A stretch of 64,000 bases of DNA from a virus (lineage: Duplodnaviria > Caudoviricetes), in the IMG/VR virus record IMGVR_UViG_2926558313_000004, positions 72,969 to 136,968 of that record. One strand, 5' to 3'. The notes under the pieces were generated by a model. That model had not been told where the DNA came from and ran no database searches. It worked only from the letters and a program-made list of their open reading frames with translations. The first letter of the stretch is position 1, and each line of letters starts with the position of its first letter. Made by a program: the position numbers and the translations under genes. This document shows positions 34,871 to 51,749 of this stretch, piece after piece.

Positions 34871-35896
34871 GTGAATTTATTGGGAAAGATCAAACGAATA
34901 AAATATTTTACTCCTGAAAAGAAATCCCTCATTTCAGAAGAAAATAGGAAGTTATATGAGAAATATTTAAAAAGCTCGATTATCAAAAATAAAGATGTGA
35001 AAGAAACTACCTATAAGGTTTATCAAAATTACATGGATCACTTTCTAGTTTATTTAGCTGAAGAATGGGATAATATCGGCTTATATAGCGAAGAATTCAT
35101 GGAAGAAGCAGTAGATATTATGGAAGGATTTATTGGTTTTTGCCAAGAAACTCTATTTAATAATAAGAAAGTAATAAACACTAAACTTAGTACTGTTTCA
35201 AGTTTTTATTTATGGAGTCTTAAAAGAGGATTGATTGATAGACACCCATTTGATAAGAAGCTTGAAAGAATGAAGGGTGCAAACGACGAAAAAATCAGAG
35301 ATTCATATTATCTAACAGAAGAGCAAGTTCTACAAATCCAAGATGGCTTATTGAATGATAAACGATATGATTTTCAGGATAGGCTTATTTGGAATATAGC
35401 TCTAGACTCCGCTAATCGGGTTGGCGCTCTATCTCGCTTAACTATCTCTTCCTTAGATCTAGAGAATATGGTATTTGAAAATATAAGAGAAAAACGAGGC
35501 AAAATCGTAGAAGTTGCATTTGAAGAGGAAACTAAGCTATTAATTGAAGAATGGCTTGAAATGAGAAAAGAGATGGATAATTTAGAAATTGATTCATTCT
35601 TTTTAACTAAATATAAGGGCAATTATAAACCAATGGATTATGGAACTATTCAAAATCGAGTTAAAAAGATAGGTACTATTATTGGAATTGAAGATTTTTA
35701 TGTTCATACTATTCGCAAAACAAAGTTGAACTTGCTATATGAACAGACTGGGAATATCGACATGGTTGCTGAATGGGCAAACCATGAATCTATTGAAACT
35801 AGTAAGAAACATTACATAAAACCAAAATCTAAGGCTCAGCTTAGACGTGAGATGAGAGAATTAATTAAGAAAAATAGAGATGAAAAGAAGAAATAA
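34871..35896 (+). CDS. Tyrosine recombinase (YomM-like)
   Basis: Catalytic R (ANRVG), K (EKRG), HTIR, NH and Y (KHYI); N-terminal SAM-like domain. Confidence 0.9.
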   Translation: MNLLGKIKRIKYFTPEKKSLISEENRKLYEKYLKSSIIKNKDVKETTYKVYQNYMDHFLVYLAEEWDNIGLYSEEFMEEAVDIMEGFIGFCQETLFNNKKVINTKLSTVSSFYLWSLKRGLIDRHPFDKKLERMKGANDEKIRDSYYLTEEQVLQIQDGLLNDKRYDFQDRLIWNIALDSANRVGALSRLTISSLDLENMVFENIREKRGKIVEVAFEEETKLLIEEWLEMRKEMDNLEIDSFFLTKYKGNYKPMDYGTIQNRVKKIGTIIGIEDFYVHTIRKTKLNLLYEQTGNIDMVAEWANHESIETSKKHYIKPKSKAQLRREMRELIKKNRDEKKK

Positions 35897-38836: not shown

Positions 38837-39061
38837 CTAGTCGTTTTTATTTTGTTTTATATTTTTCATCGCTTCCACTATCTCAGAATATTCATCATTT
38901 AAATATCTCTCAACAGCACGATCTAAAAGTCTCGTTTTTGGCATCCCTGTCTCTCGATGTACTTGATCTAGATATTCAAACAAATCATTTCGCAATGTGC
39001 TACTTAAAGGTCTCCTATGCTTAAGGTCTCTAATTCCCAATATATGACTCCCTTTCAACAA
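38837..39061 (-). CDS. Ribbon-helix-helix regulator
   Basis: RRPLSSTLRNDLFEYLDQVHRETGMPKTRLLDRAVERYL. Confidence 0.8.
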   Translation of the reverse strand: MLKGSHILGIRDLKHRRPLSSTLRNDLFEYLDQVHRETGMPKTRLLDRAVERYLNDEYSEIVEAMKNIKQNKND

Positions 39062-39154
39062 CTTAATTCTATAACGTTCTATAACTTTCTTTATATTACT
39101 TTAACATCAAAAAGCCATACTTTCAATAAAATAACCAATAAAAACAAAATAATC

Positions 39155-39183
39155 TTGAACGTTAATTAACGTTGTGGTATATT
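39155..39183 (+). promoter_or_regulatory. sigma-A promoter with a perfect 16-bp palindromic operator
   Basis: TTGAAC-17-TATATT with extended TG; AACGTTAATTAACGTT (39158-39173). Confidence 0.7.
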
Positions 39184-39228
39184 GTACTCAAGCAAGAAAA
39201 ACATTCCAATATACTAGGAGTTGATCAA

Positions 39229-39435
39229 ATGTCGTACACATTGTATGTGAGTGCAGAACAAGTAATTTCTCTTGATATTGATTGTGAAAGCGAAGAATCG
39301 GCACTGGAGAAAGCTAACGAAATTCTCTCCGCTATCAAAAATCATATTGAGAAGAAATTAACAGACGAAGGTGCATATGTACATAGCAGCGAGATGGTTG
39401 TTGAGTTGGTAACAGTGAAGGATGAAGTTCTGTAA
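39229..39435 (+). CDS. Small hypothetical protein (paralogue of 37653-37874)
   Basis: RBS AGGAG before ATG 39229. Confidence 0.65.
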   Translation: MSYTLYVSAEQVISLDIDCESEESALEKANEILSAIKNHIEKKLTDEGAYVHSSEMVVELVTVKDEVL

Positions 39436-39467
39436 GCTAGGTTCTAAAATAATGAGATTAAAAGGAG

Positions 39468-40355
39468 ATGTTAGAAATGGGTGCTAAAGTGAATGAGTTG
39501 CAATTAATTGAGGGTGGAAAAGATGTCAGAGATAAGTTCATTGGCAAAGTTGAGATTTTAGAGCGTATGAAAGAATTAAGCTTATTACCAGATGGAGAAA
39601 ATGCAAACACTGAAATGGTTGCAGAGTTTTACGGGGTTTCAAAATCAACAATAGAAAGTGTCGTAGAAGACAATCGAAACGAAGTAATTGAAGATGGATA
39701 CAATGTCTTAAAAGGCGCTGAGCTAAAGATTTTTAAAGGTAACACCCTACAAGGGTGCAACCTTAACAATAAGCTAAAATATGCCAGACAGATCGCCCTC
39801 TTCCCCCGTAGAGCAATCCTTCGTGTCGGTATGTTGCTTCGTGATTCAGAAGTAGCTAAGCAAGTGAGAACATACTTGCTAAATGTAGAAGAGATTGCCT
39901 CCCCTACTCAAAAAGAAACGGCTAGAAAGCCAGCATGGACAACCGAAGAAGACCTAATTGTTTTGAACTCTGTCTTAATGAGCGTTAATAACGATGGGAC
40001 GTTAACCGAGGGTTTAAAAGAAGCAAGTCAAAAATTGAACAGAAAATTCTCTACTGTAAATAGTCGTTGGCAATATAGTATAAGACATGTTGCTGACAAA
40101 GAAGTATTAGATAAGATCAAGAGCAACGTGGATAGACACATGAAGAAAGATAGATCTGATGAAAATGAAGCAAATGAACTTCGCTTAGAAATTGGCTATC
40201 AGATAGACTCAGTATATCGTGAGAATTGTGAACTAAAGAAAGAAAATGAAATACTAAAGTCTGATAATGAGAAATTAAAAAGAATGTACAAGAAGCTAAA
40301 ATCAGAACACACAACCGTTATAGCTTATCCGAACGGAAAAACCCATCGCCTTTAG
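39468..40355 (+). CDS. Phage antirepressor-like protein fused to an RsfA-type Myb domain; native C-terminus displaced by IS insertion
   Basis: RRAILRVGMLLRDSEVAKQVRTYLL; AWTTEEDLIV...KLNRKFSTVNSRW; original tail found at 41833-41890. Confidence 0.75.
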   Translation: MLEMGAKVNELQLIEGGKDVRDKFIGKVEILERMKELSLLPDGENANTEMVAEFYGVSKSTIESVVEDNRNEVIEDGYNVLKGAELKIFKGNTLQGCNLNNKLKYARQIALFPRRAILRVGMLLRDSEVAKQVRTYLLNVEEIASPTQKETARKPAWTTEEDLIVLNSVLMSVNNDGTLTEGLKEASQKLNRKFSTVNSRWQYSIRHVADKEVLDKIKSNVDRHMKKDRSDENEANELRLEIGYQIDSVYRENCELKKENEILKSDNEKLKRMYKKLKSEHTTVIAYPNGKTHRL

Positions 40356-41832
40356 GCATGGGATGATAGTGAGGTCGGTCAGGGATGGCTTTTGCCATCT
40401 TAATTGACCGAAAAATCACTACACAAATTGTTTTTCATGCAAAAAATTGTTATATAATAGACATATAGCAAAAAAGGAAGTGACGAACAATGGTCATGTA
40501 TTTAACTCAAAGCAATCAAATCAGAGGTCTTTCTAAGGAGCAATTTAAACAACTGAAAGAAATGTGTCACTATGCAAAAAACCTTTACAATGTAGGCTTG
40601 TATAATGTGCGACAACATTACTTTACAGAAAAAAGCTTTTTAAGCTATGAATCCAACTATCACGTTTCAAAAACCAATGAAAATTATGGCATGCTTCAAG
40701 CGGGTGTTTCACAGCAAATTTTAAAAGTAGTAGATCGCTCTTTTAAAAGCTTTTTTAATCTAATTAAGAAAGCGAAAAAAGATGAATACCGCTTTCAAGA
40801 TGTGAAATTACCGAGATATTTAAAGAAAGATGGTCTGTTTCCACTCATTTTTTCTACAAATGCAATTAGTATTAAAGATGGTTTTTTCCGTGTAGCTGTT
40901 TCAAATGCGTACAAAAAGTTGAATCCAAATTTCCAACAAATCCTGATACCTTTCCCTTCAAGACTAGAGGGTAAAAAGATAAAAGAAGTACGAATCGTCC
41001 CAAGAAACAACGGACAATTCTTTTCTATTCAATACGTCTATGAGCAACCGTATGAAGTGACAGAGCTAGATCGTAGCAAAGCACTAGCTATTGACATCGG
41101 ATTAGACAATCTGGCTTCTTGCGTTGATACAGATGGGGCATCCTTTTTAATGGATGGAAAGAAAATCAAATCAATTAACCGTCTATACAACAAAGAGAAA
41201 GCACGTTTACAATCCATTGCCATGAAACAGGGTATGAAATACACGAAGCAGATTGACGCTATAACATTGAAGCGCAATCGTCAAATCAGTGATTCCATAA
41301 AAAAAAGCGCCAGACACATCATTAACTATTGCATAGAAAACAAAATCGGCAATCTAGTTGTGGGCTACAATAAAGATTTTAAGAGAAATATCAATATTGG
41401 CAAAAAGAATAATCAGCAGTTTGTACAAATTCCATTTGGAAATTTGAGAGAGCAACTTTTTAATCTTTGTGAGCGATATGGCATTGAATACAAAGAGCAA
41501 GAAGAAGCCTATACAAGCAAAGCGTCTTTTTTTGACAATGACCTCATTCCGAATTGGAATCCAGAAGAAAAAGAAAAGCACATTTTTAGCGGAAAACGTA
41601 TAAAACGTGGTCTTTACCGCACGAAAACCGGATATGAGCTAAATGCTGATATTAATGGAGCTTTAAATATTTTACGCAAAAGTAACTTGGTGGATTGTGA
41701 AATCCTACAAGCTAGAGGGCGTTTGGCTCGCCCATTAAGAATAAGAGTCATTTGACCAAACTTCTTTTAAAGAATCCCACTCGTTTCACCGCAAGGTGTA
41801 GAGCTTGCCCCTTTAGGGGTGGGAGAAGTCAA
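40322..41832 (+). mobile_element. IS200/IS605-family TnpB-only element (IS1341-like)
   Basis: Inserted 3' of TTAT (40318-21); subterminal hairpins share CCTTTAGG at both ends; right end TCAA; excision restores the host reading frame. Confidence 0.8.
40490..41755 (+). CDS. tnpB: TnpB RNA-guided nuclease
   Basis: KNLYN, LAIDIGLDN (RuvC-I), EEAYTSK, NADINGALNI (RuvC-III). Confidence 0.93.
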   Translation: MVMYLTQSNQIRGLSKEQFKQLKEMCHYAKNLYNVGLYNVRQHYFTEKSFLSYESNYHVSKTNENYGMLQAGVSQQILKVVDRSFKSFFNLIKKAKKDEYRFQDVKLPRYLKKDGLFPLIFSTNAISIKDGFFRVAVSNAYKKLNPNFQQILIPFPSRLEGKKIKEVRIVPRNNGQFFSIQYVYEQPYEVTELDRSKALAIDIGLDNLASCVDTDGASFLMDGKKIKSINRLYNKEKARLQSIAMKQGMKYTKQIDAITLKRNRQISDSIKKSARHIINYCIENKIGNLVVGYNKDFKRNINIGKKNNQQFVQIPFGNLREQLFNLCERYGIEYKEQEEAYTSKASFFDNDLIPNWNPEEKEKHIFSGKRIKRGLYRTKTGYELNADINGALNILRKSNLVDCEILQARGRLARPLRIRVI

Positions 41833-41850
41833 GAATGTTGTTGGTGCTGC
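41756..41850 (+). ncRNA. omegaRNA 3' scaffold and flanking guide (5' limit unresolved)
   Basis: Structured right end (CCCACTC...GGGGTGGG); guide inferred from the flank GAATGTTGTTGGTGCTGC. Confidence 0.55.
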
Positions 41851-41962
41851 TATGAAGGCTCATACTCGTGAAGTATTGAGGATGAAATAGAGCGTATAAT
41901 ATACTAGTAAAAACCTCCCATTTTGTCGTATAATGGTAGAATGACGGATGGGAGGTGAAGAA

Positions 41963-42721
41963 ATGAATATATTAAGTATCTTACATACTTTTGAGAACTT
42001 AACTAATAAAGAAAAAGAGCGACTTTTAAAAGAATTTAAGGTGAAGTCGTTTGTTGAACTCCACTTGAAAATTAATGAATCATTGAAAAAAACTCTAAAT
42101 GTAATTGAAAATCAAGATTTAATTAATGCATCAAAATTCGTTAGGTGGAATGATGATTGGAATGAATATGGAATTTACGGAAGTAAAAGAGAAGTCTTGA
42201 AAGAAGTAGCTTCCAAAACCTATAGTAGAGGTAGAATTTTATTCATTGACTTCGGTCATCACAACATAGGTAGAGAGTTTTCGCATAATCATGCAGGAGT
42301 CGTACTAAAAGACTTTGGTTCAGTTATAGAAGTATTGCCTATAACATCGGACAAAGGTAAGAAATTTTCCAGCGATATTGAAAAAGCGATTATTCGAGTA
42401 AAGAAAGCCGATTATAATCAGTTTGATAATAATTCAATTTTGTTAACACATCAAATTCAATCAATCTCTAAGAATAGAATTATCAAAGACTTACACAAAA
42501 CAATAGCTAAGACAGAATTAATGGTTCAGATTGAAGAAAGACTATCCTTCACTTATGCTCCTTACTATTCCAAAAAACAAAATGATGAAATAAACTCATT
42601 ATCAGAAAAAGTTTTGCAATTAGAAGAAGAAATTCGTATTATGAGTGAATTAACTAAGGGAATAACTGAAGTAACTACTAGTGAAAAGTTAATCGCTTCT
42701 CATAAAGAAATAGTTGACTAA
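41963..42721 (+). CDS. PemK/MazF-family endoribonuclease with N- and C-terminal extensions
   Basis: RGRILFIDFG..NIGREFS..HAGVVL...VLPITS...QIQSISKNRI; RBS GGGAGGTGA before ATG 41963. Confidence 0.85.
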   Translation: MNILSILHTFENLTNKEKERLLKEFKVKSFVELHLKINESLKKTLNVIENQDLINASKFVRWNDDWNEYGIYGSKREVLKEVASKTYSRGRILFIDFGHHNIGREFSHNHAGVVLKDFGSVIEVLPITSDKGKKFSSDIEKAIIRVKKADYNQFDNNSILLTHQIQSISKNRIIKDLHKTIAKTELMVQIEERLSFTYAPYYSKKQNDEINSLSEKVLQLEEEIRIMSELTKGITEVTTSEKLIASHKEIVD

Positions 42722-42742
42722 ACACAACAAAACGTGTATGAT
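42714..42742 (+). promoter_or_regulatory. sigma-A promoter overlapping the pemK stop codon
   Basis: TTGACT-17-TATGAT. Confidence 0.8.
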
Positions 42743-42748
42743 GTAAGT

Positions 42749-42863
42749 ATCAAAAGTTATATTAACCCTTTCCGTAAGGAATGAGGCTGTGCAATTAACC
42801 TATTAACCCTTGCAATATTGCAAGAGGCTTAAGACCTCCCTCCATTGTGAGCGAGGTCTTTTT
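42749..42863 (+). ncRNA. Small repeat RNA, candidate RNA antitoxin
   Basis: Two 29-nt repeats TATTAACCCTT-[3-bp stem, 4-nt loop]-AWGAGGCT at 42760 and 42801; terminator AAGACCTC...GAGGTCTT+TTT (42831-42863). Confidence 0.7.
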
Positions 42864-42964
42864 CGTGGTTTCGATATTTGTTTATACATATGCCCCATGT
42901 CTCCCCTACTCTACTGGAGTCAGGGGATTTTTGTGTTTTAATTGCTTTGAAAGGAGTTGATGAA

Positions 42965-44214
42965 ATGAATGAAGATTTGAAGTTGCTGATTACAGCAGGG
43001 ATTAATACTGGTACATCTGTAAGGGAAATCAATAATTCAATTAAACAACTGCAGAAAGTTGTTAATCAAAAGAAATTAAATTTAAATATTAAAGTTAATC
43101 AAGATACTTTAAAGCAAATTGAAATGTTTAATACACGGATGAAGGCGCTGGGAGATCAAGCTTTAAATACACGGAAAGTTATAGAAGAAGTCACCTCCCC
43201 CACTGGCGCAAAAGTAACAAGAACTCACTGGGAAGGTGTAGGTGGGGCATTTTCTGAGATCGAATCAAAAGCCAAGCAGACTCAGAAATCAATGGCTCAA
43301 ACATCGGAAGTAGCAAAAGAGACTAAAAAAGAATTTGATTCAATAGCAACATCTACTCAAAAAAATGAGAAATCAGCTCAAAAATTTAACTCTGAAATTC
43401 AAAAAACAGAGAATTTAGTAAAGCGTACATCACGTTTGAATTCTGAAGGTAAAAAGGTTTGGGATGAGACATATCAAAGCGCTTCAAAGGCACGGCAGGA
43501 AGTTGTTAAATATAATGAACATGGTGAACAAACCAATAAAGTTTACACTGAAAATTATAATAATTTAAGAAAACTTTCTCAGGAACGAGCTAAGTTGAGA
43601 CGTGAATTGGTTGCAATGCAATCAGATGGTCGTATTTCTCAATCTCAGTTTAATGATTTATCTAGTAGATTAAATACAAGCACTAGCCAAGTTGCTTTGA
43701 ATAAATATAAAGAACAGATGAAGTCATTAACTACAGTTACAAGCCAAGCAACAGCTAATCAAGCTAAATTAAATCAAGAGCAAGGTAAATTTAGAATTAA
43801 TTTAAATCAATTACATAATCAAGGAAAAATTACTGAAGATCAATTAAGACAATTCAGTAATGCGGTTAATACTACAAAGTCAGTCGGACAAGTTAAAAGG
43901 CTATCGCAAGAAATAGATAAGCTAAGAGTGAAGGCTTCCAGTGTGTCTTCTACTCCACTAACTCAATTTGATCTAGATTTAGCAAGAAGGCAATTTGATA
44001 ATAAAGCAAGTGAGGCAATTAGACAATACCCATCTATTGATAAACGGGCAATAGCTGACCTGCAAAATCAGTTTAAATCACTAGAAGTAGGAACAGATAA
44101 CGTAAGAAATAAAATAAGAGATTATAACATGTCTCTAACGGAAACTGTCAGTCAGACTAAACGTGTGACTGCTAATACTAATACAATGGCTGGGGCATTC
44201 CAGAATGCAATGGT
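42965..44214 (+). CDS. Tape measure protein (YomI/CwlP-like), exon 1
   Basis: RBS AAGGAG before ATG 42965; coiled coil; ends AFQNAM-gt. Confidence 0.85.
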
Positions 44215-44511
44215 GGAATATCGCCGTCTAGCTTAGTAATAGGCTAGATTATGACAGGGGAAAATCGGTGAAGGCTAAGTCGTAAGATATGCTAATACCG
44301 AGGTAAATATTAAATGTAAAAGTTTAATATCACCGTAACGCATAGGTCTTGAACCTGTGTTTTTATCCACAGAATATAATAGACCCACGAGTCTCCTGTA
44401 CCCTATCGATTATTCGAGGGTAAAAATGTATGCTATCTCATCATGAATCAACATGATTCAAAGGAGGAAACTCCGAGGGAGTAAAGATAAAAAGCTTTAC
44501 TGTGAAAAATG
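44215..44511 (+). ncRNA. ORF-less group I intron 1 in the tape measure gene (297 nt)
   Basis: P1 ATGGT/GCCGT; P3 ACAGGGGA/TCTCCTGT; P7 GCATA/TATGC; terminal G44511; restores AMV-KFPIWM. Confidence 0.88.
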
Positions 44512-44931
44512 GAAGTTCCCTATCTGGATGGCAGCCAGTACCGCTTTCTTTGGTACGATCAGAAGTTTCCAAAATATGTTAACACAAATTATCGAGATCG
44601 ACAGTCAAATGACCTCATTAATGAGGGTATCCAATGGAGAAATCGATAGAAATCATATTCTTCAGCAAAGTGTTGATTTGGCAACGCGATTGGGTAATAC
44701 AATAAGCCAAATTAACGCTGGGCTTGAAACGTTCGCCAGACAAGGCTTTAGAGATGATGGGCTAATTGCCATGACGGAAGCATCTACCTTATTTTCCAAT
44801 ATTTCGGAAATGGATGTTGACCAAGCGGCAAGTGGTCTAACTGCTATAGCTATGGGCATGAAGGAAATTAGCGATACAGATATCATGGTTGCGGTTGATG
44901 CCATAAATGAAGTCGATAATAATTTTGCGAT
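44512..44931 (+). CDS. Tape measure protein, exon 2
   Basis: KFPIWMAAST...FARQG...NEVDNNFA, TP901-type TMP core. Confidence 0.88.
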
Positions 44932-45218
44932 TTGAAGAAGTCGCCTATATTGGTAACAATATAGTGATAACTCAGTGAACCCTATTGCTCAGGGGTGTAC
45001 ATTATTGTGCTAACGGTGGAAGTCTAAGTTATTTTAATACTTAATAAAATAATATGATAATACCGTGCCAAGCTTGAAAGGTAACTTTCTTGAAGGTGTA
45101 ACGACTAATTCTTAGGAGGGAAAGATGAGCTGCCCTTCGAAGCGCTGAGAATCCTTTTTAAAGGATTATGATATAGTCTAACCCCTATTAAATATGTCGA
45201 AAGACAGGGTATTATATG
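44932..45218 (+). ncRNA. ORF-less group I intron 2 in the tape measure gene (287 nt)
   Basis: P1 GCGAT/GTCGC; 6-bp P10 GAAGAA/TTCTTC; P3 CTCAG/CTGAG; P7 GACTA/TAGTC; terminal G45218. Confidence 0.92.
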
Positions 45219-45354
45219 TTCTTCTCAAAATATTGTTCAATCTATCCAAAAGTCAGTAGGTGCTGCAGAGACATTTGGTGTTTCACTGCATGAGCTAATT
45301 GGTTATACCACTGCTATTGGAGAAACTACGAGGGAATCTGGAAATATCATCGGT
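45219..45354 (+). CDS. Tape measure protein, exon 3 (136 nt, absent from the ORF track)
   Basis: SSQNIVQSIQKSVGAAETFGVSLHELIGYTTAIGETTRESGNIIG, a conserved TMP segment. Confidence 0.9.
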
Positions 45355-45590
45355 GAAAAGTTGCTGATGTAAAATTCTCACTTATTGACTTGGACGCCCT
45401 AACGTTTAGACGAGGGTAACAGGGGCGAAGTTTAAATACACGCTGAACGACTGAGTGTGAGAACGCTATTAAGCATAGCGAAGCGACAGTCTGAACTTCT
45501 ATGGAGACATAGAGAGTAAGGTTGAAGCGCCTTACCGCCAAATATAGTATTTGGTCAGTAACCTTTAAACTAGGTGAAAGTAACAGCTTG
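45355..45590 (+). ncRNA. ORF-less group I intron 3 in the tape measure gene (236 nt)
   Basis: P1 CATCGGT/GCTGATG; P3 TTCTCAC/GTGAGAA; P7 GACTG/CAGTC; terminal G45590; restores ESGNIIG|NSLKTIFSRI. Confidence 0.9.
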
Positions 45591-48500
45591 AACAGTCTTA
45601 AAACAATATTTTCCAGAATCACCACAATGGATGGTTCAATTGATGCATTAAACTCAGTTGGTATAGCTGTACATAATATGGAGGGCGATGTTCGTCCAGT
45701 AGCAAATATATTAGATGAATTAGGCAGTAAATGGAGTTCCTTGAACTCTCAACAACAGCAATCTATTGCGCTTCAAATTGCCGGCAGATATCAGCTCTCG
45801 CGCTTCTTGGTTTTGATGAATAACCATTCTAGAGCCATCGAAGCTACTAACACAGCCATGAATTCCGCAGGATCTGGAATGAGGGAGAATGAACAATACT
45901 TACAATCATTAGAAGCCCGCATAAACAGATTTAAAAATTCGTGGACTGAAATGGCTATTACTGTCGGAGACGCTTTTCTGTCTGATGGTATTGTAGCATT
46001 TTCAGAAACTATGGCTACAATTTTATCTTCTAGTTCAGATATCATTAGTGTAATTGGTTTTCTGCCTCCAGCTCTTGGTGCGGCAACAGTGGCAACTGTA
46101 GCACTTAATTCTTCAATGAGAACCAATATAACGACCGCCGCAGCTCAAGCGGGAACGCTAACTACACTTAGAGGTATAATTTCAGGTGTAGGTGCAAGTG
46201 CAACAGCAACTGGTGCAGCTTTAGCAACTATGGGACGTTTCATGATTGGAGCCTTACCGCCTGTTGCTCTGATAATGCTTGGTAGCTTTGCATTAGAAAA
46301 GCTCTTCTCAGCTTACATGAAGAATAGAGAAGAAGTAAGGCAGCTAGAGCAAGAAATGAATAAGTCCACCGAGGCAATTAGAAGTCAAGGTGACACAGTT
46401 GATGAACTTGCAAATAGGTTCCAAGAACTTGAAAAATTAAAGCAAACAACTGGTTTAACAAATGAACAGGAAGAGGAATTTGTAAGTCTACAGAATCAAT
46501 TAGCAGAAATACTACCTACTGTAGCTAGTGGATTAGATGAAAAAGGGAACAAGCTGATTGAAAGCTCTGATTTACTACAACAGGAAATTGACCTATTAAA
46601 AGAAAAAATTGAACTGGAGAAAGAGCAGAATAGACTGAATTTAGATTCAAACATTAATAGTCTGCAATTAGATATCGATAAAGAAATTAATAATATTGAT
46701 AAATTGAAAAAGCATGTAATTTTTTACGAAGAAGAAATTTCTAGATTGCAAAATGACAATACTGCCTCTGCTTTCGACATTGAATGGAATCAACTGCAAT
46801 TATTTGCTACAAAACAAAAAATCATTGAAGCAGAGCAGAAAATTCTAAATCTTAATAAGCAAATAGGTCAAACAGTTGCCGATACTGTTGAAGATGCTTC
46901 TAACTTAAGTAATCTGGATTTTGACTGGATATCTGAGATCAAAAAGAATGGATTCGATGGCATTGATTTAAATAATGATGAATTAATTAAATTCACTAAA
47001 ACCCTCTCCTCTATTCGCAAATCTTTCGGTGAAGCATTTTCAACCGATCAACTAAAAACTTTTTCTCAAGAGCAGTTGCAAATCCTCTCCCACATGTCAG
47101 TTAATCTTCAAAATGGGACAAAAGATTTTAGTGATTGGACAGATGCTTTAAAAAATGCAGGGTTCTCATCTGATGATGCAGAATCAGCTATTAGTGCGTT
47201 AAATAGAGCTGTTGAGGAAACTGCTCATGTACAAGAAATGGTTGATCTTGGTGTATTTCGTGATTTAGAAGGAACAATTCCTGTAAAAACTACGAAAGAA
47301 TACAATGAAGTTATAGAAGAAGGTATTCCTCTTTATATTGAAGTCGATGGGGTTATGCAGGAATTAACTGACACTTTAGACTCCCAATCCGAATCCATCG
47401 ATCTCACTGAAAAATCCTTCGAAGAACTCACTCAATACATAGCCGAAAAAACTAACCCTACCCTATCCGATTACATGGCACTGGCATCAGCCACATCAGA
47501 TGAACTCGACATCCTCTCCTCTGCTCACAAGGAATTAATCACCGACGGTAAGCTTTCTCAATCAAGTCTAGATAAGCTAATCGAAGCTTACCCAGACTTC
47601 ATCAAAGTAACTGGCTTATCGACAGATAAGATGCTTGAATTTATAACAGCTTCTAAGCAGCAACGTATGCAAGCAATTCGTGATCAAAAAGAAATGACTA
47701 GAGCAACCATCGAAGAAACTGAGAAGCGAATTGCAGAGATGCAAAAAGAAATCGACGCAATGGGAGCGCGGACTCTAGCTCAAATCAGAAGTTATAACGC
47801 TCAAATTACTAGTCTAAGAAATGCATTGTCTAACACGACTGACCGAAGCGAACAAGAAAGACTCTCTAATGAAATCACTCGCATTAGTGGAGTCATTTAC
47901 GATTTAAATACTGCCTTCCAAGAGCAGCACACTATTCTAAGTGACTTAAAAAAAGAAAATGAGGAAGCAACTAATTCATACACTTACCTCGACTATGCAG
48001 TAAATGATTTAGCTGAATCTTATCATAAGAATACTGAAGCAAACGACAAAAATAATAAATCTCAAAAAGACTCAATTTATTTAGCTAATAAGCGAGAAGA
48101 AGCAATCAAGGCTCTTAATCGTGAACTAACCAGACAGCAAAACGCTCAAAATAACTTACTAAAGGGATCTCAAAGATGGTTAAAAGCTAAGCAGGAAGAA
48201 ATCAACCTCACTCAAAAACTAAGAGAAGAATTAGCTAATCAGAGGGCGGAATTAGAAAAACTACAAAATGCAGGAATCGTTCAACAATCAGGAGTAGTAA
48301 ATTCTTCTTCGATGAATGGTGGATCGTCTTCATCGTCTTATAGCGGTCAATACGCTACTTATATTAATAAAGCCGCTGCACAATACGGAATTGATCCAAA
48401 TCTAATTGCGGCTGTCATTCAAACAGAATCTAATTTCAATTCAAATGCCCGTTCCTCTGCCGGAGCACAGGGATTAATGCAATTAATGCCTGCTACCGCT

Positions 48501-51500
48501 AGAGAACTTGGAGTTACCAACATAAATGATCCTGAACAAAACATTATGGCAGGAACTAAATACCTCGCACAGCAACTTGAAAGATTTAGCGGAGATATCG
48601 AAAAAGCATTAGCTGCTTACAATGCGGGTCCCGGCAATGTTCAGAAATGGGTTAATAATGGTCAATGGGGTAATATACCGTTTAAGGAAACTCGAAATTA
48701 CATTCCAAAAGTCTTAAATGAATACGGTAAATTTAATAATAATTCATCCTCTACAAGCGGAGTCTCTAATGATGTAGCCTCATATTATCTTAATAATTTC
48801 CGTCAAACTTCTCAGTTTGGTATGCGTAATGGACGTATGCACAATGGAATTGATCTCGCCCCAATGGAAAGAGGTAAACAAGGCGATCCAATTAAGGCTC
48901 TTATGGGTGGAGTTGTCAAATCAGTTGGTTATCAAAAAGATGGAGCTGGCTATTATATTACGTTAGAGCATATGGATGGTTCAGTAACTAAATATTTCCA
49001 CCTTATGGAAATGCCTAGTTTAAAAGTTGGTCAACAAGTACAAGGTGGTCAGCAAATAGGTAAATTAGGAAACACTGGACGCTCTTCAGGTGCTCATCTT
49101 CATCTTGAATATTTGCAAAATGGTAAAGCCGTCAACCCTTTACCCGTTCTTCAGCAAATAGCACAAGGCGGAGGCGATTTTGCCCAATATCAACAAGGTC
49201 TTGCTAATCAAGCCCAAACAATTGAAGATTTAAAAGTTCAAGAACATCAGCTATATTTGCAGCAGCAAAAAATTCAAGAAGATTATTTAAATGGTTTAAT
49301 TGAAAATCACAATCGTTCAATAGAAAGATTAGAGCGTTCAATTCAAGAACAGCAGAACATTATCGACCAAAATCCAGAAGGCTCAGCAGCCCGCAACCAA
49401 GCATTAAATCAAATTAACTACCTTCAAAGCTTAATTGATAAGGAATTAAATGAAATCCAGTATAAGGCTGGACAATACTCAAACAGAACAGATATTTCTG
49501 AACAAGGTAGATATGATTTTGCCGTACTTCGTGATGAAACTCGACTACGCAGACAAGGTATAACCATAGAGCAAGCTGAACGTAATGCCACACGCACTGA
49601 AGAAAAAGTTACTCAGCTACAAGGATTAATTGAACAGCAAAACCGATCCCTTCAACACGTTGAAAATGAATTAAACAAATTAGATCCCTACTCTCCTGAA
49701 TATCGTGAAATGTTAGATGATCGACTTAAACACGAAAATGAAGCTCTTCGTCTTATGAATCGAATTAAAGAAGAATATACTAAAGCGATTGAATCAGGAA
49801 AATTAACTGAAGCTTCAATTAATCAATTTAAACAAGCGTTGTCGGATACGAACTTAGAAATCGAAGAACAATCTCGTTTAATCAAAGAAATAGATGAACT
49901 TTTTGCAGAGAGTGTCATTGGTGAATATAATCGAGAATTAGATAAACTCTCTTACCAATATGACTTATCAACAAAGACAATGGCTTTATACAAAGAAGGC
50001 TCAAAAGATTACATGCTTGAACTGAGCAAGCAAGCGAGTATAACAACGGAGCAAATCAATAAAGAAAAAGAATTACAACAAACCCTTCTTGAACTTTTAA
50101 GAACTAAAGATTTATCTATACAGAAGCAAGAAGAATATAATGAAATGATAAGAACTTCAGTTATTAGACAAAAAGAATTTCAACTCACTCTTCTAAACAC
50201 AAGAGAATATATTCAAAATCAAATTGCAGATCAATTAACTAAACAGCAAACTCAATATTTAGATACTTTGAAAAATAAGTATGATGAACTAAATAAAACT
50301 CTAGAATCATTAATTAAACCAGAGGATATATTTAATGCTAATGAATTTAAGCACAGCATCAATGAGATTATTTACGAACTAGAGCGAATTGATGGTCAAT
50401 TTAAGAAAAACGCCATGTTTGTAGAATCTGCATCTGGAGTATATAAAAATCTCGATCAAACGAGAAAATCAATTCTTGATATGGCAAACGCCATTGAAAA
50501 AATGGCTAATTCCACATCTAATAATCAGTCTGAATTAGAGAAAATGATTCGCTCGCAATCTCAATATGCCAATCAAATTAAAGATGAAATTGAACTTATC
50601 GATCAGAGAATTCGTCAAAGAGAGCTTGAACAGAAGAAAATTGAAGATTCTCTTCAAAATCAAATAGATCTCAGACAAAAAGAAATAGAGCAATTAGATG
50701 AACAATATCAAAAAGAAGATAGACTCAAACGATTACGTGATCTAGAAGAAGAAATGGATAAAGTGTATAACGATAGACGTTTTGAGTATATTGACGCAGA
50801 AGGAAATGTCATCCTTACCTATGACAGAGGTCGCTACAATGAATTAGTCAAACAACGTGACGAGATGCTTGAGCAATACGAGCGTGAAGATATTAAAAAA
50901 GCCCGTCAAGATGAAATTAATGAACTCCAAGAAAAGCTAAACAAAACGAGAGAAATTCACAGGGCAGAAATAAATGACATCAATCTTCAACGCAATGCTT
51001 TAAACACTTTATACAATGCTTTAGTTGCAAACACTAGAGATAAAATGGCTCAGCTTAAATCATTACAAGACCAACATCTCGAAGACACAAGAAAGAATTG
51101 GGATGACATTATTGAATCCGTCAGAGAAGGAACAATGACCTATTCTGAATTAATGAATAGCTGGTATGGATCTGCATTAGAAGAGATGAAGGACTTTGGG
51201 TTGGAAGTGGCTGAAGAAGTCAATAAAATAAAGGATTTATACAATCAATTATTTGAAGTTCAAGTTCCGGAGCCTCCAAAACAAAAGAGTGGTAGTAGCG
51301 GAAGTAGCAGTTCTAAAACTGGAAGTACCATCGGAAGAGTTATAGGTGGTTTTGTAGGAGGAGGAGCAGGTGGCGCTGTTGGTGGAGCAATCGGCGGCGC
51401 TATTGGCTCAATCAGAGATAAAATCACTAAAAAACATGATGGCGGCATTGTCGAGGGTGGAAAGCCAAATAAAGTCACACAATTGATGAATACCCTCATG

Positions 51501-51749
51501 AATGCTAATGCAGATGAGCAAGCAATTTTAGCATTGAAAAATGAATTATTCTCTCCTGAAGAAAATCTTACCAAATACGCTCTTCCTAACATGAGAAATC
51601 TAATGAGTAAGGTTACACCTAATTTAAGTTTACAACCACAAACAACTGAAACTCATTACCATATTCATAAAGACATCTTAGTAAAAGCGGATAATCCATA
51701 CGATATGCTTCAAGGTATTCGTACTTTTGTAAATACAAATAAAGGTTAA
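45591..51749 (+). CDS. Tape measure protein, exon 4, with SLT lytic transglycosylase and M23 peptidase (spliced total about 2654 aa)
   Basis: IQTESNFN...GAQGLMQLMP...AAYNAG...ETRNY; HNGID...GNTGRSSGAHLH; long coiled coils. Confidence 0.92.
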   Translation, partial: NSLKTIFSRITTMDGSIDALNSVGIAVHNMEGDVRPVANILDELGSKWSSLNSQQQQSIALQIAGRYQLSRFLVLMNNHSRAIEATNTAMNSAGSGMRENEQYLQSLEARINRFKNSWTEMAITVGDAFLSDGIVAFSETMATILSSSSDIISVIGFLPPALGAATVATVALNSSMRTNITTAAAQAGTLTTLRGIISGVGASATATGAALATMGRFMIGALPPVALIMLGSFALEKLFSAYMKNREEVRQLEQEMNKSTEAIRSQGDTVDELANRFQELEKLKQTTGLTNEQEEEFVSLQNQLAEILPTVASGLDEKGNKLIESSDLLQQEIDLLKEKIELEKEQNRLNLDSNINSLQLDIDKEINNIDKLKKHVIFYEEEISRLQNDNTASAFDIEWNQLQLFATKQKIIEAEQKILNLNKQIGQTVADTVEDASNLSNLDFDWISEIKKNGFDGIDLNNDELIKFTKTLSSIRKSFGEAFSTDQLKTFSQEQLQILSHMSVNLQNGTKDFSDWTDALKNAGFSSDDAESAISALNRAVEETAHVQEMVDLGVFRDLEGTIPVKTTKEYNEVIEEGIPLYIEVDGVMQELTDTLDSQSESIDLTEKSFEELTQYIAEKTNPTLSDYMALASATSDELDILSSAHKELITDGKLSQSSLDKLIEAYPDFIKVTGLSTDKMLEFITASKQQRMQAIRDQKEMTRATIEETEKRIAEMQKEIDAMGARTLAQIRSYNAQITSLRNALSNTTDRSEQERLSNEITRISGVIYDLNTAFQEQHTILSDLKKENEEATNSYTYLDYAVNDLAESYHKNTEANDKNNKSQKDSIYLANKREEAIKALNRELTRQQNAQNNLLKGSQRWLKAKQEEINLTQKLREELANQRAELEKLQNAGIVQQSGVVNSSSMNGGSSSSSYSGQYATYINKAAAQYGIDPNLIAAVIQTESNFNSNARSSAGAQGLMQLMPATARELGVTNINDPEQNIMAGTKYLAQQLERFSGDIEKALAAYNAGPGNVQKWVNNGQWGNIPFKETRNYIPKVLNEYGKFNNNSSSTSGVSNDVASYYLNNFRQTSQFGMRNGRMHNGIDLAPMERGKQGDPIKALMGGVVKSVGYQKDGAGYYITLEHMDGSVTKYFHLMEMPSLKVGQQVQGGQQIGKLGNTGRSSGAHLHLEYLQNGKAVNPLPVLQQIAQGGGDFAQYQQGLANQAQTIEDLKVQEHQLYLQQQKIQEDYLNGLIENHNRSIERLERSIQEQQNIIDQNPEGSAARNQALNQINYLQSLIDKELNEIQYKAGQYSNRTDISEQGRYDFAVLRDETRLRRQGITIEQAERNATRTEEKVTQLQGLIEQQNRSLQHVENELNKLDPYSPEYREMLDDRLKHENEALRLMNRIKEEYTKAIESGKLTEASINQFKQALSDTNLEIEEQSRLIKEIDELFAESVIGEYNRELDKLSYQYDLSTKTMALYKEGSKDYMLELSKQASITTEQINKEKELQQTLLELLRTKDLSIQKQEEYNEMIRTSVIRQKEFQLTLLNTREYIQNQIADQLTKQQTQYLDTLKNKYDELNKTLESLIKPEDIFNANEFKHSINEIIYELERIDGQFKKNAMFVESASGVYKNLDQTRKSILDMANAIEKMANSTSNNQSELEKMIRSQSQYANQIKDEIELIDQRIRQRELEQKKIEDSLQNQIDLRQKEIEQLDEQYQKEDRLKRLRDLEEEMDKVYNDRRFEYIDAEGNVILTYDRGRYNELVKQRDEMLEQYEREDIKKARQDEINELQEKLNKTREIHRAEINDINLQRNALNTLYNALVANTRDKMAQLKSLQDQHLEDTRKNWDDIIESVREGTMTYSELMNSWYGSALEEMKDFGLEVAEEVNKIKDLYNQLFEVQVPEPPKQKSGSSGSSSSKTGSTIGRVIGGFVGGGAGGAVGGAIGGAIGSIRDKITKKHDGGIVEGGKPNKVTQLMNTLMNANADEQAILALKNELFSPEENLTKYALPNMRNLMSKVTPNLSLQPQTTETHYHIHKDILVKADNPYDMLQGIRTFVNTNKG

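Follow-up and report, generated by a model that had tools for sequence, protein, structure and literature searches.

A MazF-fold gene paired with a downstream two-hairpin RNA: a candidate RNA-antitoxin module of reversed layout in mobile elements of Bacilli

What restrains a MazF-type nuclease that is encoded with no antitoxin gene at its side? We were led to this question by a 64,000-nt stretch of a Caudoviricetes record in IMG/VR (IMGVR_UViG_2926558313_000004, positions 72,969 to 136,968; this whole stretch is the window hereafter, and coordinates refer to it unless a homologue locus is named), which sits on a 197-kb contig of a 4.5-Mb genome. On the plus strand of the window, a gene at 41963..42721 encodes a 252-amino-acid protein of the MazF/PemK fold, as judged from its open reading frame (ORF), Pfam, AlphaFold2 and Foldseek. 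To our knowledge, MazF and PemK are textbook type II toxins that are always discussed together with a protein antitoxin. An earlier note on this DNA had called the gene an orphan PemK/MazF nuclease, and our analysis agrees: no co-oriented ORF of at least 40 amino acids in the window ends between -120 and +40 nt of the nuclease start. Immediately downstream, on the same strand, lies what we read as a dedicated small RNA. The interpretation that we favor, with confidence evenly balanced between acceptance and doubt, is that gene and RNA form a type III-like toxin-antitoxin or abortive-infection module with a reversed layout, in which a constitutively made, two-unit RNA would neutralize a MazF-family RNase.

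The anatomy of this RNA can be followed letter by letter in the window. A near-consensus sigma-A-type promoter (TTGACT-17-TATGAT, 10/12 in a consensus scan) occupies 42714..42742 on the plus strand, with its -35 box overlapping the TAA stop codon of the nuclease gene, and an intrinsic terminator identified by repeat search and folding follows on the same strand at 42831..42866 (12-nt arms at 42831-42842 and 42849-42860, a 6-nt loop and a T-run). With its start placed by the -10 box and its end by the terminator, we predict a small RNA of ~118 nt (42749..42866, plus strand). Both the promoter over the stop codon and the terminated RNA described in the earlier note were recovered. Also recovered were its two 29-nt units with near-identical flanks, at 42760..42788 and 42801..42829 (both plus strand), which the repeat search places 41 nt apart and finds to be 76% identical. 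Unit 1 consists of an A/U-rich 5' flank, a lower stem (CCC/G-A-GG) in which one A bulges out, and an upper stem that varies; unit 2 has the same flanks and lower stem, with a different yet complementary upper stem. The 11-mer common to both 5' flanks has exact copies only at these two sites in the 64-kb window, and 7 matches vs. 2.34 expected when up to one mismatch is allowed. Folding of 42745-42870 renders both units as hairpins and the terminator as a long stem, with a minimum free energy of -32 kcal/mol (z -2.37); 5 of 200 shuffles fold as stably, and the fold signal alone is modest.

The strongest argument against a chance pairing of gene and RNA is that the same layout recurs beside homologues, which is where the earlier note had proposed looking for the repeats, naming their absence there as a refutation; the pairing withstood this check. 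We collected homologue loci from several sources. In a class-level sample of 401 genomes, 34 genomes matched at E <= 1e-8, and in a phylum-level sample of 401 genomes there were 2 matches including the window's own genome, i.e., 1 further; family-level searches around two of the genomes (1 of 15 genomes around G067, 1 of 61 around G367) added no loci. Metagenomic and viral contigs contributed 4 loci (2 of them also in IMG/VR), the plasmid source 6 records, and the phage source 111 records (63 Staphylococcus, 48 Streptococcus) via a Streptococcus member. The window protein itself had no match in the phage collection by tblastn or megablast, and the phage members were reached via more distant relatives. 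We then read the DNA 3' of the stop codon at 35 loci from genomes, metagenomes, plasmids and temperate phages (given L numbers below), leaving out a locus broken by stop codons (L010) and short canonical MazF-like genes (L023, L024, L026-L032).

At 26 of these 35 loci (the window, L002, L005-L009, L018, L020-L022, L025, L033-L037, L041-L043 and L054-L059), the gene is succeeded by a near-consensus promoter, then by a short non-coding stretch that holds hairpins, and finally by an intrinsic terminator. L019, outside this count, has no more than a weak promoter, and by eye two tandem hairpin units are present at ~21 of the 35. An example is Vulcanibacillus modesticaldus (L002), whose gene is 51% identical to that of the window and is followed by TTGACA-17-TAATAT, two units and a terminator; its units, spaced 37 nt apart, carry the flanks seen in the window around different complementary stems. 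By scripted scan, 15 of 18 RNA-type loci have a promoter scoring 10/12 or better between -45 and +110 of the stop codon, compared with 6 of 52 other window ORF ends. One of the remaining RNA-type loci scored 9/12 and two were missed by the scan's criteria, including L034, where TTGACT-18-TAATCT can be seen by eye. The -35 box also overlaps the stop codon at L009, L020, L025, L036, L037, L055 and L058. The layout is non-random and widespread, and the pair is conserved across diverse elements. The type of RNA tracks the protein tree as well, which indicates co-inheritance and is not proof of co-evolution, since relatives share labels anyway.

The difference between the inner stems of the two window units, which nevertheless both pair, had been taken in the earlier note as a sign of selection on RNA structure, and the stems do covary across homologue units. 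We registered 17 units from 9 loci by hand on their conserved edges, and in all of them an A/U-rich 5' flank is followed by a lower stem whose 3' strand reads G-N-G-G/A, where the bulged N is A in 13 units and U in the other 4. Counted from the innermost position of the lower stem, the first pair is C-G in all but 2 of the 17 units, which have A.G, the second is C-G throughout, and the third is always a standard pair but varies in identity (C-G 12, U-A 3, G-C 2). An upper stem is absent in L005 and L035, and elsewhere comprises 3 to ~8 bp of unrelated sequence. In six units that align cleanly with MAFFT, 83.3% of 54 cells pair, vs. 33-44% with slid partners; 5 of 9 pairs change on both sides, and the covariation score is reached by 0 of 500 shuffles, with the caveat for these counts that units within one locus are paralogues. 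The counts leave aside an alignment in which MAFFT had placed the 3' sides of the L007 and L008 units wrongly.

In more distant subfamilies the sequences change but this RNA design persists. Two or three short G/C hairpins are found at L018 and L020; at L021, L041 and L042, a single unit whose bulge is a C precedes a different, second hairpin. The RNAs of Staphylococcus and Streptococcus phages form two hairpins whose flanks are shared and whose stems covary. In SA13, for instance, one unit begins its stem with C-G and the other with U-A, and orthologous stem changes are also seen between Javan489 and Javan569. A covariance model of the unit (R1, 36 positions) retrieved nothing above noise except the six units it was trained on and is therefore too narrow to define the family; it scored L034 unit 2, L037 unit 2, L021 and L035 unit 2 at 9-12 bits, among chance matches. 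A loose two-unit DNA pattern, run over the 401 class-level genomes, was not specific (12 matches vs. ~40 for a reversed control) and yielded no extra copies, as the only matches whose insert appeared self-complementary by eye were the two beside the gene, in the window's own genome and in G067.

What is conserved in these units is the A/U-rich flank and the CC(C)...G-N-GG lower stem, and not the heptamer AUUAACC that the earlier note had put forward as the cleavage or decoy site. The third ATTAACC that it had pointed to in the linker is indeed present (42794-42800), but has no counterpart at the other loci. Nor does the RNA coincide with a catalogued family: in the Rfam comparison, which included the pemK motif (RF02913), cmscan with Rfam 15 on 39000-45000 of the window gave no RF02913 match at E <= 10 and no match of any kind to the small RNA, and at the homologue loci (15 + 10) there was no RF02913 match at E <= 1 and the partner RNAs again matched nothing.

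We considered several other identities for the RNA. It is not a small peptide gene, as 2 of 11 RNAs lack an ORF of at least 15 codons and the other 9 share none. It is not a leader or attenuator of the next gene, since that neighbor is convergent at seven loci (L006, where it is a tmRNA, and L009, L035, L036, L041, L042 and L058). Its use as an antisense RNA to the 5' region of the nuclease gene was likewise rejected, as predicted duplexes between the RNA and the 5'-UTR/start region were no better in energy than shuffles at 9 of 9 loci (z -1.06 to +2.54). The same energies bear on a broader alternative, namely that the RNA base-pairs with the nuclease mRNA and not with the protein, controlling translation or stability in a type I-like manner or as a trans-acting small RNA. 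Two features of the window would suit such control: the first terminator arm of the RNA holds a CCUCCC stretch, and an 8-nt inverted repeat (41914-41921 / 41948-41955) could sequester the nuclease gene's Shine-Dalgarno sequence by pairing it with an upstream CCUCCCAU, so that translation may be regulated. The RNA, however, lies on the gene's own strand and does not overlap it, and the CCUCC of the terminator is not conserved (L002, L005), which together with the duplex energies leaves mRNA pairing very unlikely in our view.

Just upstream of the nuclease gene, ~200 nt away, lies a solo TnpB gene (40490-41755, with OrfB_IS605 and Cas12f-like TNB domains). The RNA was rejected as cargo or guide RNA of this TnpB, as TnpB is absent from the other loci; a guide RNA of TnpB itself would be expected in 41755-41900, where no Rfam match was seen. 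The neighbor also lends some color to the idea that the repeats act as DNA, whether as operators, iterons or single-stranded hairpins of the TnpB element, and direct repeats with palindromic cores can be operators; alternatively, the hairpins might simply be tandem terminators. Against the former, the pair adjoins TnpB at no other locus read, and upper stems that differ yet still pair are unlike the evolution of operator half-sites. Against the latter, the unit hairpins lack T-runs and a proper terminator follows them. We regard either version as scarcely credible.

The protein, for its part, is a MazF core with additions on both sides. Pfam places PemK_toxin (PF02452) on residues 89-194 (E 5.9e-8, 33.3 bits vs. 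a cut-off of 23.1) and finds nothing else significant in the 252 amino acids, and searches with NCBIfam and PADLOC-DB 2.0.0 returned only chance-level matches (for the latter a single one, to SIR2; E 0.01, 12.8 bits). An AlphaFold2 model built on a 43-sequence alignment (mean pLDDT 94.9) has four N-terminal helices confidently packed on a beta-rich MazF core, and a 50-residue C-terminal helix, corresponding to a helical extension at ~1-88, the core at ~89-198 and the long helix at ~200-251. The top Foldseek matches are the MazF proteins of S. aureus and B. subtilis (target TM ~0.8), and all matches listed (ranks 1-49, target TM ~0.65-0.82) are toxins of the MazF type, from S. aureus, B. subtilis, B. 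anthracis (MoxT), B. cereus, M. tuberculosis and E. coli; no ToxN occurs among those ranks. The family profile likewise matches B. subtilis EndoA/YdcE and other Gram-positive MazF structures at ~3e-7. The protein thus belongs to the MazF family proper, to which it adds domains of its own, and does not have a ToxN-like fold.

Only 2 relatives of similar length emerged when 5.8 billion proteins were searched by word index; with exhaustive phmmer against 1.84 billion representatives we found 115 clusters at E <= 1e-3, 47 at E <= 1e-10 and 9 at E <= 1e-30. As most of the 115 representatives are 230-290 amino acids long, the combination of extension, MazF core and C-terminal helix is a real family. 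Residues G90, G98, E105, H110, P126 and R172 are invariant in the 43-sequence alignment, with K170 and T128/S129 nearly so; E105, H110, P126 and R172, together with T128/S129, mark a conserved region at the putative active site. The N-terminal extension is conserved with a WNxxWNxYG motif. No consistent protein partner is encoded upstream, with 7 of 17 long-family loci lacking an upstream ORF and the rest having unrelated ones (enolase, Rep, cI-like).

The antidote could in principle be built into the protein, the N-terminal extension being a fused cis-acting antitoxin (a MazE-like pseudo-substrate) and the RNA an unrelated regulatory RNA that travels along. The conservation of the extension and its confident folding against the core would suit this arrangement, as would PHROG 1412, labeled "antitoxin mazE-like", which matches residues 39-146 at E 1.8e-14. 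That match, however, spans the extension plus part of the MazF core, so that PHROG 1412 is the same protein family and its label seems to be an annotation transfer, and a PDB profile search found no MazE-like match for the extension. A fused antitoxin would also leave unexplained why the RNA type tracks the protein lineage and why the RNA is kept at 26 of 35 loci, and we therefore consider it distinctly improbable.

The settings in which the pair occurs indicate that it travels. At L005 it stands alone between an enolase gene and a UbiA-family gene, and at L006 it adjoins a tmRNA and smpB (883-1251 of that locus), which together imply that gene and RNA move as one self-sufficient module. A 17-nt fragment of a tmRNA 3' end was also noted at L020 (2583-2599), and the tmRNA context of L006 and L020 suggests islands integrated at ssrA. 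The pair is further found on the small plasmids L041 and L042, and at all 7 temperate-phage loci read it lies in the lysogeny module, between cI-like regulators and the integrase.

This last placement is central to a rival view in which the two partners assemble into a ribonucleoprotein that serves the mobile element otherwise than as a toxin, for instance by tuning lysogeny, integrase expression or superinfection immunity. The MazF fold would then serve specific RNA recognition, as an RNA-binding or RNA-processing factor with a cognate RNA, and not killing. In addition to the 7 of 7 lysogeny modules, this view draws on a histidine at the position of the catalytic arginine (see below) and on an RNA-less subfamily fixed between smc and rnc, a location more reminiscent of housekeeping than of a toxin. 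Yet the pair also occurs outside lysogeny modules (on the plasmids L041 and L042, among the housekeeping genes of L005 and among tail genes in the window), the next gene is often convergent, and solitary, sporadic, horizontally moving two-part modules are typical of toxin-antitoxin systems. We judge the ribonucleoprotein role unlikely, though less so than the other rivals.

Returning to the type III-like module, several points weigh against it. The RNA is absent at 8 of 35 loci, namely the plasmid locus L040 and L011-L017, which form one subfamily (E ~1e-20 to the family profile) at a fixed chromosomal spot with smc upstream and a convergent RNase III gene (rnc) downstream, and in which the scripted scan found a promoter of at least 10/12 3' of the gene at 0 of 7 loci. 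This subfamily may be a domesticated paralogue. The protein can evidently exist without the RNA, which is awkward for an obligate toxin. In the profile alignment an invariant histidine stands opposite the arginine of the EndoA "GGVRP" segment, which we take to be the catalytic arginine, so that the chemistry may differ or be absent. The N-terminal extension could be a cis-inhibitor, and two loci have a candidate protein partner after all, a 69-amino-acid Cro/C1 helix-turn-helix gene abutting the gene at L021 and a 47-amino-acid ORF with a weak ribbon-helix-helix antitoxin match (20 bits, below cut-off) at L034. The units are non-identical bulged hairpins, in contrast to the identical pseudoknots of ToxI repeats. 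Finally, hairpins and promoters at phage and plasmid loci were called by eye, and the structure on which covariation was scored (5 of 9 pairs) was derived from the same sequences.

The eight RNA-less loci and the histidine are among the reasons why we hold confidence in a type III-like module near the midpoint. Of what the earlier note had proposed, the type III-like system with reversed layout is still the best reading, from anatomy and conservation, but without AUUAACC as its site. The sequences themselves establish the layout, its conservation, the covariation of the stems and the fold of the protein, whereas we infer that the protein would be a toxic nuclease, that the RNA would be expressed and bind it directly, and that the pair would act in the roles outlined next.

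In the mechanism that we propose, the pair would be a two-part mobile module of a MazF-family endoribonuclease-like protein and a dedicated small RNA, the latter made constitutively and in excess from its own promoter. As no terminator separates gene and RNA, the RNA would also form the 3' end of read-through nuclease transcripts. Each unit would bind one protomer of the toxin dimer and block its RNA-binding groove, and the toxin might first cleave an RNA precursor in the single-stranded A/U-rich flanks, which would serve it as a site of cleavage or as a pseudo-substrate. Once transcription ceases or the element disappears (phage infection, plasmid or prophage loss, host shut-off), the labile RNA would decay and free the stable nuclease. 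In both window units UAUU lies directly 5' of the lower stem, and S. aureus PemK is reported in a review (PMC4885055) to recognize UAUU; this would fit the cleavage or pseudo-substrate idea but is only a lead, as the flank varies among loci.

Some phages may carry the antidote alone. In Streptococcus phage Javan569 (L059, 2440-2585), a second, separately promoted small RNA follows the terminator of the phage's own partner RNA; across aligned columns it shares 86% identity with the RNA located 3' of a PemK-like gene of a different subtype in phage 315.1 (L055). No 315.1-type protein gene is present in the 3.8-kb stretch of Javan569 that was read, and the similarity fits an orphan antidote RNA, which this second RNA may be. 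Taken one step further, the pair may represent a widespread, unrecognized class of RNA antitoxins in mobile elements of Bacilli, in which a MazF-family RNase and a downstream, separately transcribed two-hairpin RNA co-diversify into specificity classes and phages occasionally carry orphan antidotes. The hosts concerned would include temperate phages and island-like elements of Staphylococcus aureus, Streptococcus pyogenes, S. pneumoniae and S. suis. We advance this broader reading tentatively, with confidence that stops a little short of the midpoint.

Two catalogued RNAs were seen near partner RNAs at other loci. On the small B. subtilis plasmid of L041, which carries both gene and partner RNA, Rfam "Bacillus-plasmid RNA" (RF01691) matches 285-340 with 59.5 bits. 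On the minus strand of two streptococcal prophages, Rfam Spy779816 (an S. pyogenes small RNA) scores above threshold between the partner RNA and the integrase gene (L043, 3374-3462; L059, 2584-2669), with weaker matches in L055 and L056.

Within the window, the nuclease gene has a GGAGG 8 nt 5' of its ATG and a possible promoter of its own (TTGAGG-18-TATACT, 41876..41905, plus strand), a weak call of 9/12 in the consensus scan. Downstream of the RNA, a second terminator-like hairpin (42902-42927) with a T-run occupies 42902..42933 on the plus strand, before the start of a tape-measure gene of a prophage-like region; the pair lies between tail genes here. The ribosome-binding sites and starts of the nuclease gene (41951-41968) and the tape-measure gene (42953-42970), 1002 nt apart, are identical at 16 of 18 positions, and these may be the junctions of an inserted module. 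The tape-measure gene itself is broken up into four or more ORFs (42965-44236, 44453-44935, a short piece near 45217-45370, and 45522-51749) that match successive parts of PHROG 4211. Its gaps at 44205-44459, 44922-45197 and 45295-45514 have sub-threshold Rfam group I intron matches (36.3, 24.4 and 21.7 bits; gathering score 50), and each may be a group I intron without an ORF, which would place three of them in a single tail gene. A tyrosine-integrase-like ORF (34871-35896; PHROG 1 and 216, E ~3e-25) precedes the tail genes by a few kb, within a region that otherwise looks like one co-oriented phage gene block.

If our interpretation is correct, a branch of MazF in which a small RNA has taken the place of the protein antidote would connect type II with type III systems, RNA antitoxins would have arisen more than once on the same fold, and a simple bulged-hairpin RNA inhibitor of a MazF nuclease would join the known repertoire. 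The family is not rare, with its 115 clusters, 111 GenBank-derived phage records and Bacillus plasmids, in which it is annotated as "toxin", "antitoxin" or "hypothetical". If its role lies in abortive infection or superinfection exclusion, the family would be relevant to the phage resistance that prophages confer on staphylococci and streptococci.

How, then, does the pair compare with what has been described? Existing annotation gives little guidance: GenBank phage records label the same family "PemK/MazF family toxin", "mazE-like antitoxin" or "SaPIn2 protein", bare and mutually contradictory, and those read have no RNA annotated downstream. In the open-access full text searched, we found no account of a MazF/PemK toxin whose partner is an RNA encoded downstream and no functional study of the family, and the S. 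aureus prophage literature that was checked only lists "PemK-like" genes. The pair shares with the type II systems MazEF and PemIK the same toxin core (PF02452, EndoA at E 3e-7, target TM ~0.8), but mazE or pemI upstream is absent in the window and not consistent in homologues, and the protein differs in its length (about twice the usual), in its invariant histidine vs. the arginine of EndoA, and in the conserved small RNA downstream. The pemK RNA motif (its accession, RF02913, is given in a preprint, 10.1101/2021.11.03.467129) is a structured RNA that takes its name from the pemK genes with which it is associated. It is classed as cis-regulatory, whereas the RNA described here lies downstream, has its own promoter and shows no covariance-model match.

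Type III toxins have a Kid/MazF-like fold, and the type III systems (ToxIN, CptIN and TenpIN) resemble our pair in combining an endoribonuclease-type toxin, here a putative one, with a tandem-repeat non-coding RNA, here a predicted one, as well as in the strong promoter of the RNA, in carriage by phages and plasmids, and in a suspected role in abortive infection or element retention. Their repeat units measure ~36-45 nt, compared with unit spacings of 41 nt in the window and 37 nt in V. modesticaldus. For TenpI, repeat numbers as low as 2-3 are known, and PMC4885055 gives it three predicted repeats. By contrast, the RNA here is downstream, with its own promoter at or after the stop codon and a terminator after the RNA, and the toxin is a PF02452 MazF/PemK protein with extra N- and C-terminal parts, not ToxN, CptN or TenpN. 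We do not file the pair as ToxIN, CptIN or TenpIN, because its layout and toxin family both depart from the type III operon as defined in PMC8860590 (repeats upstream of the toxin, one promoter, a terminator between). In functional terms, it is nonetheless the type III systems that the pair most resembles.

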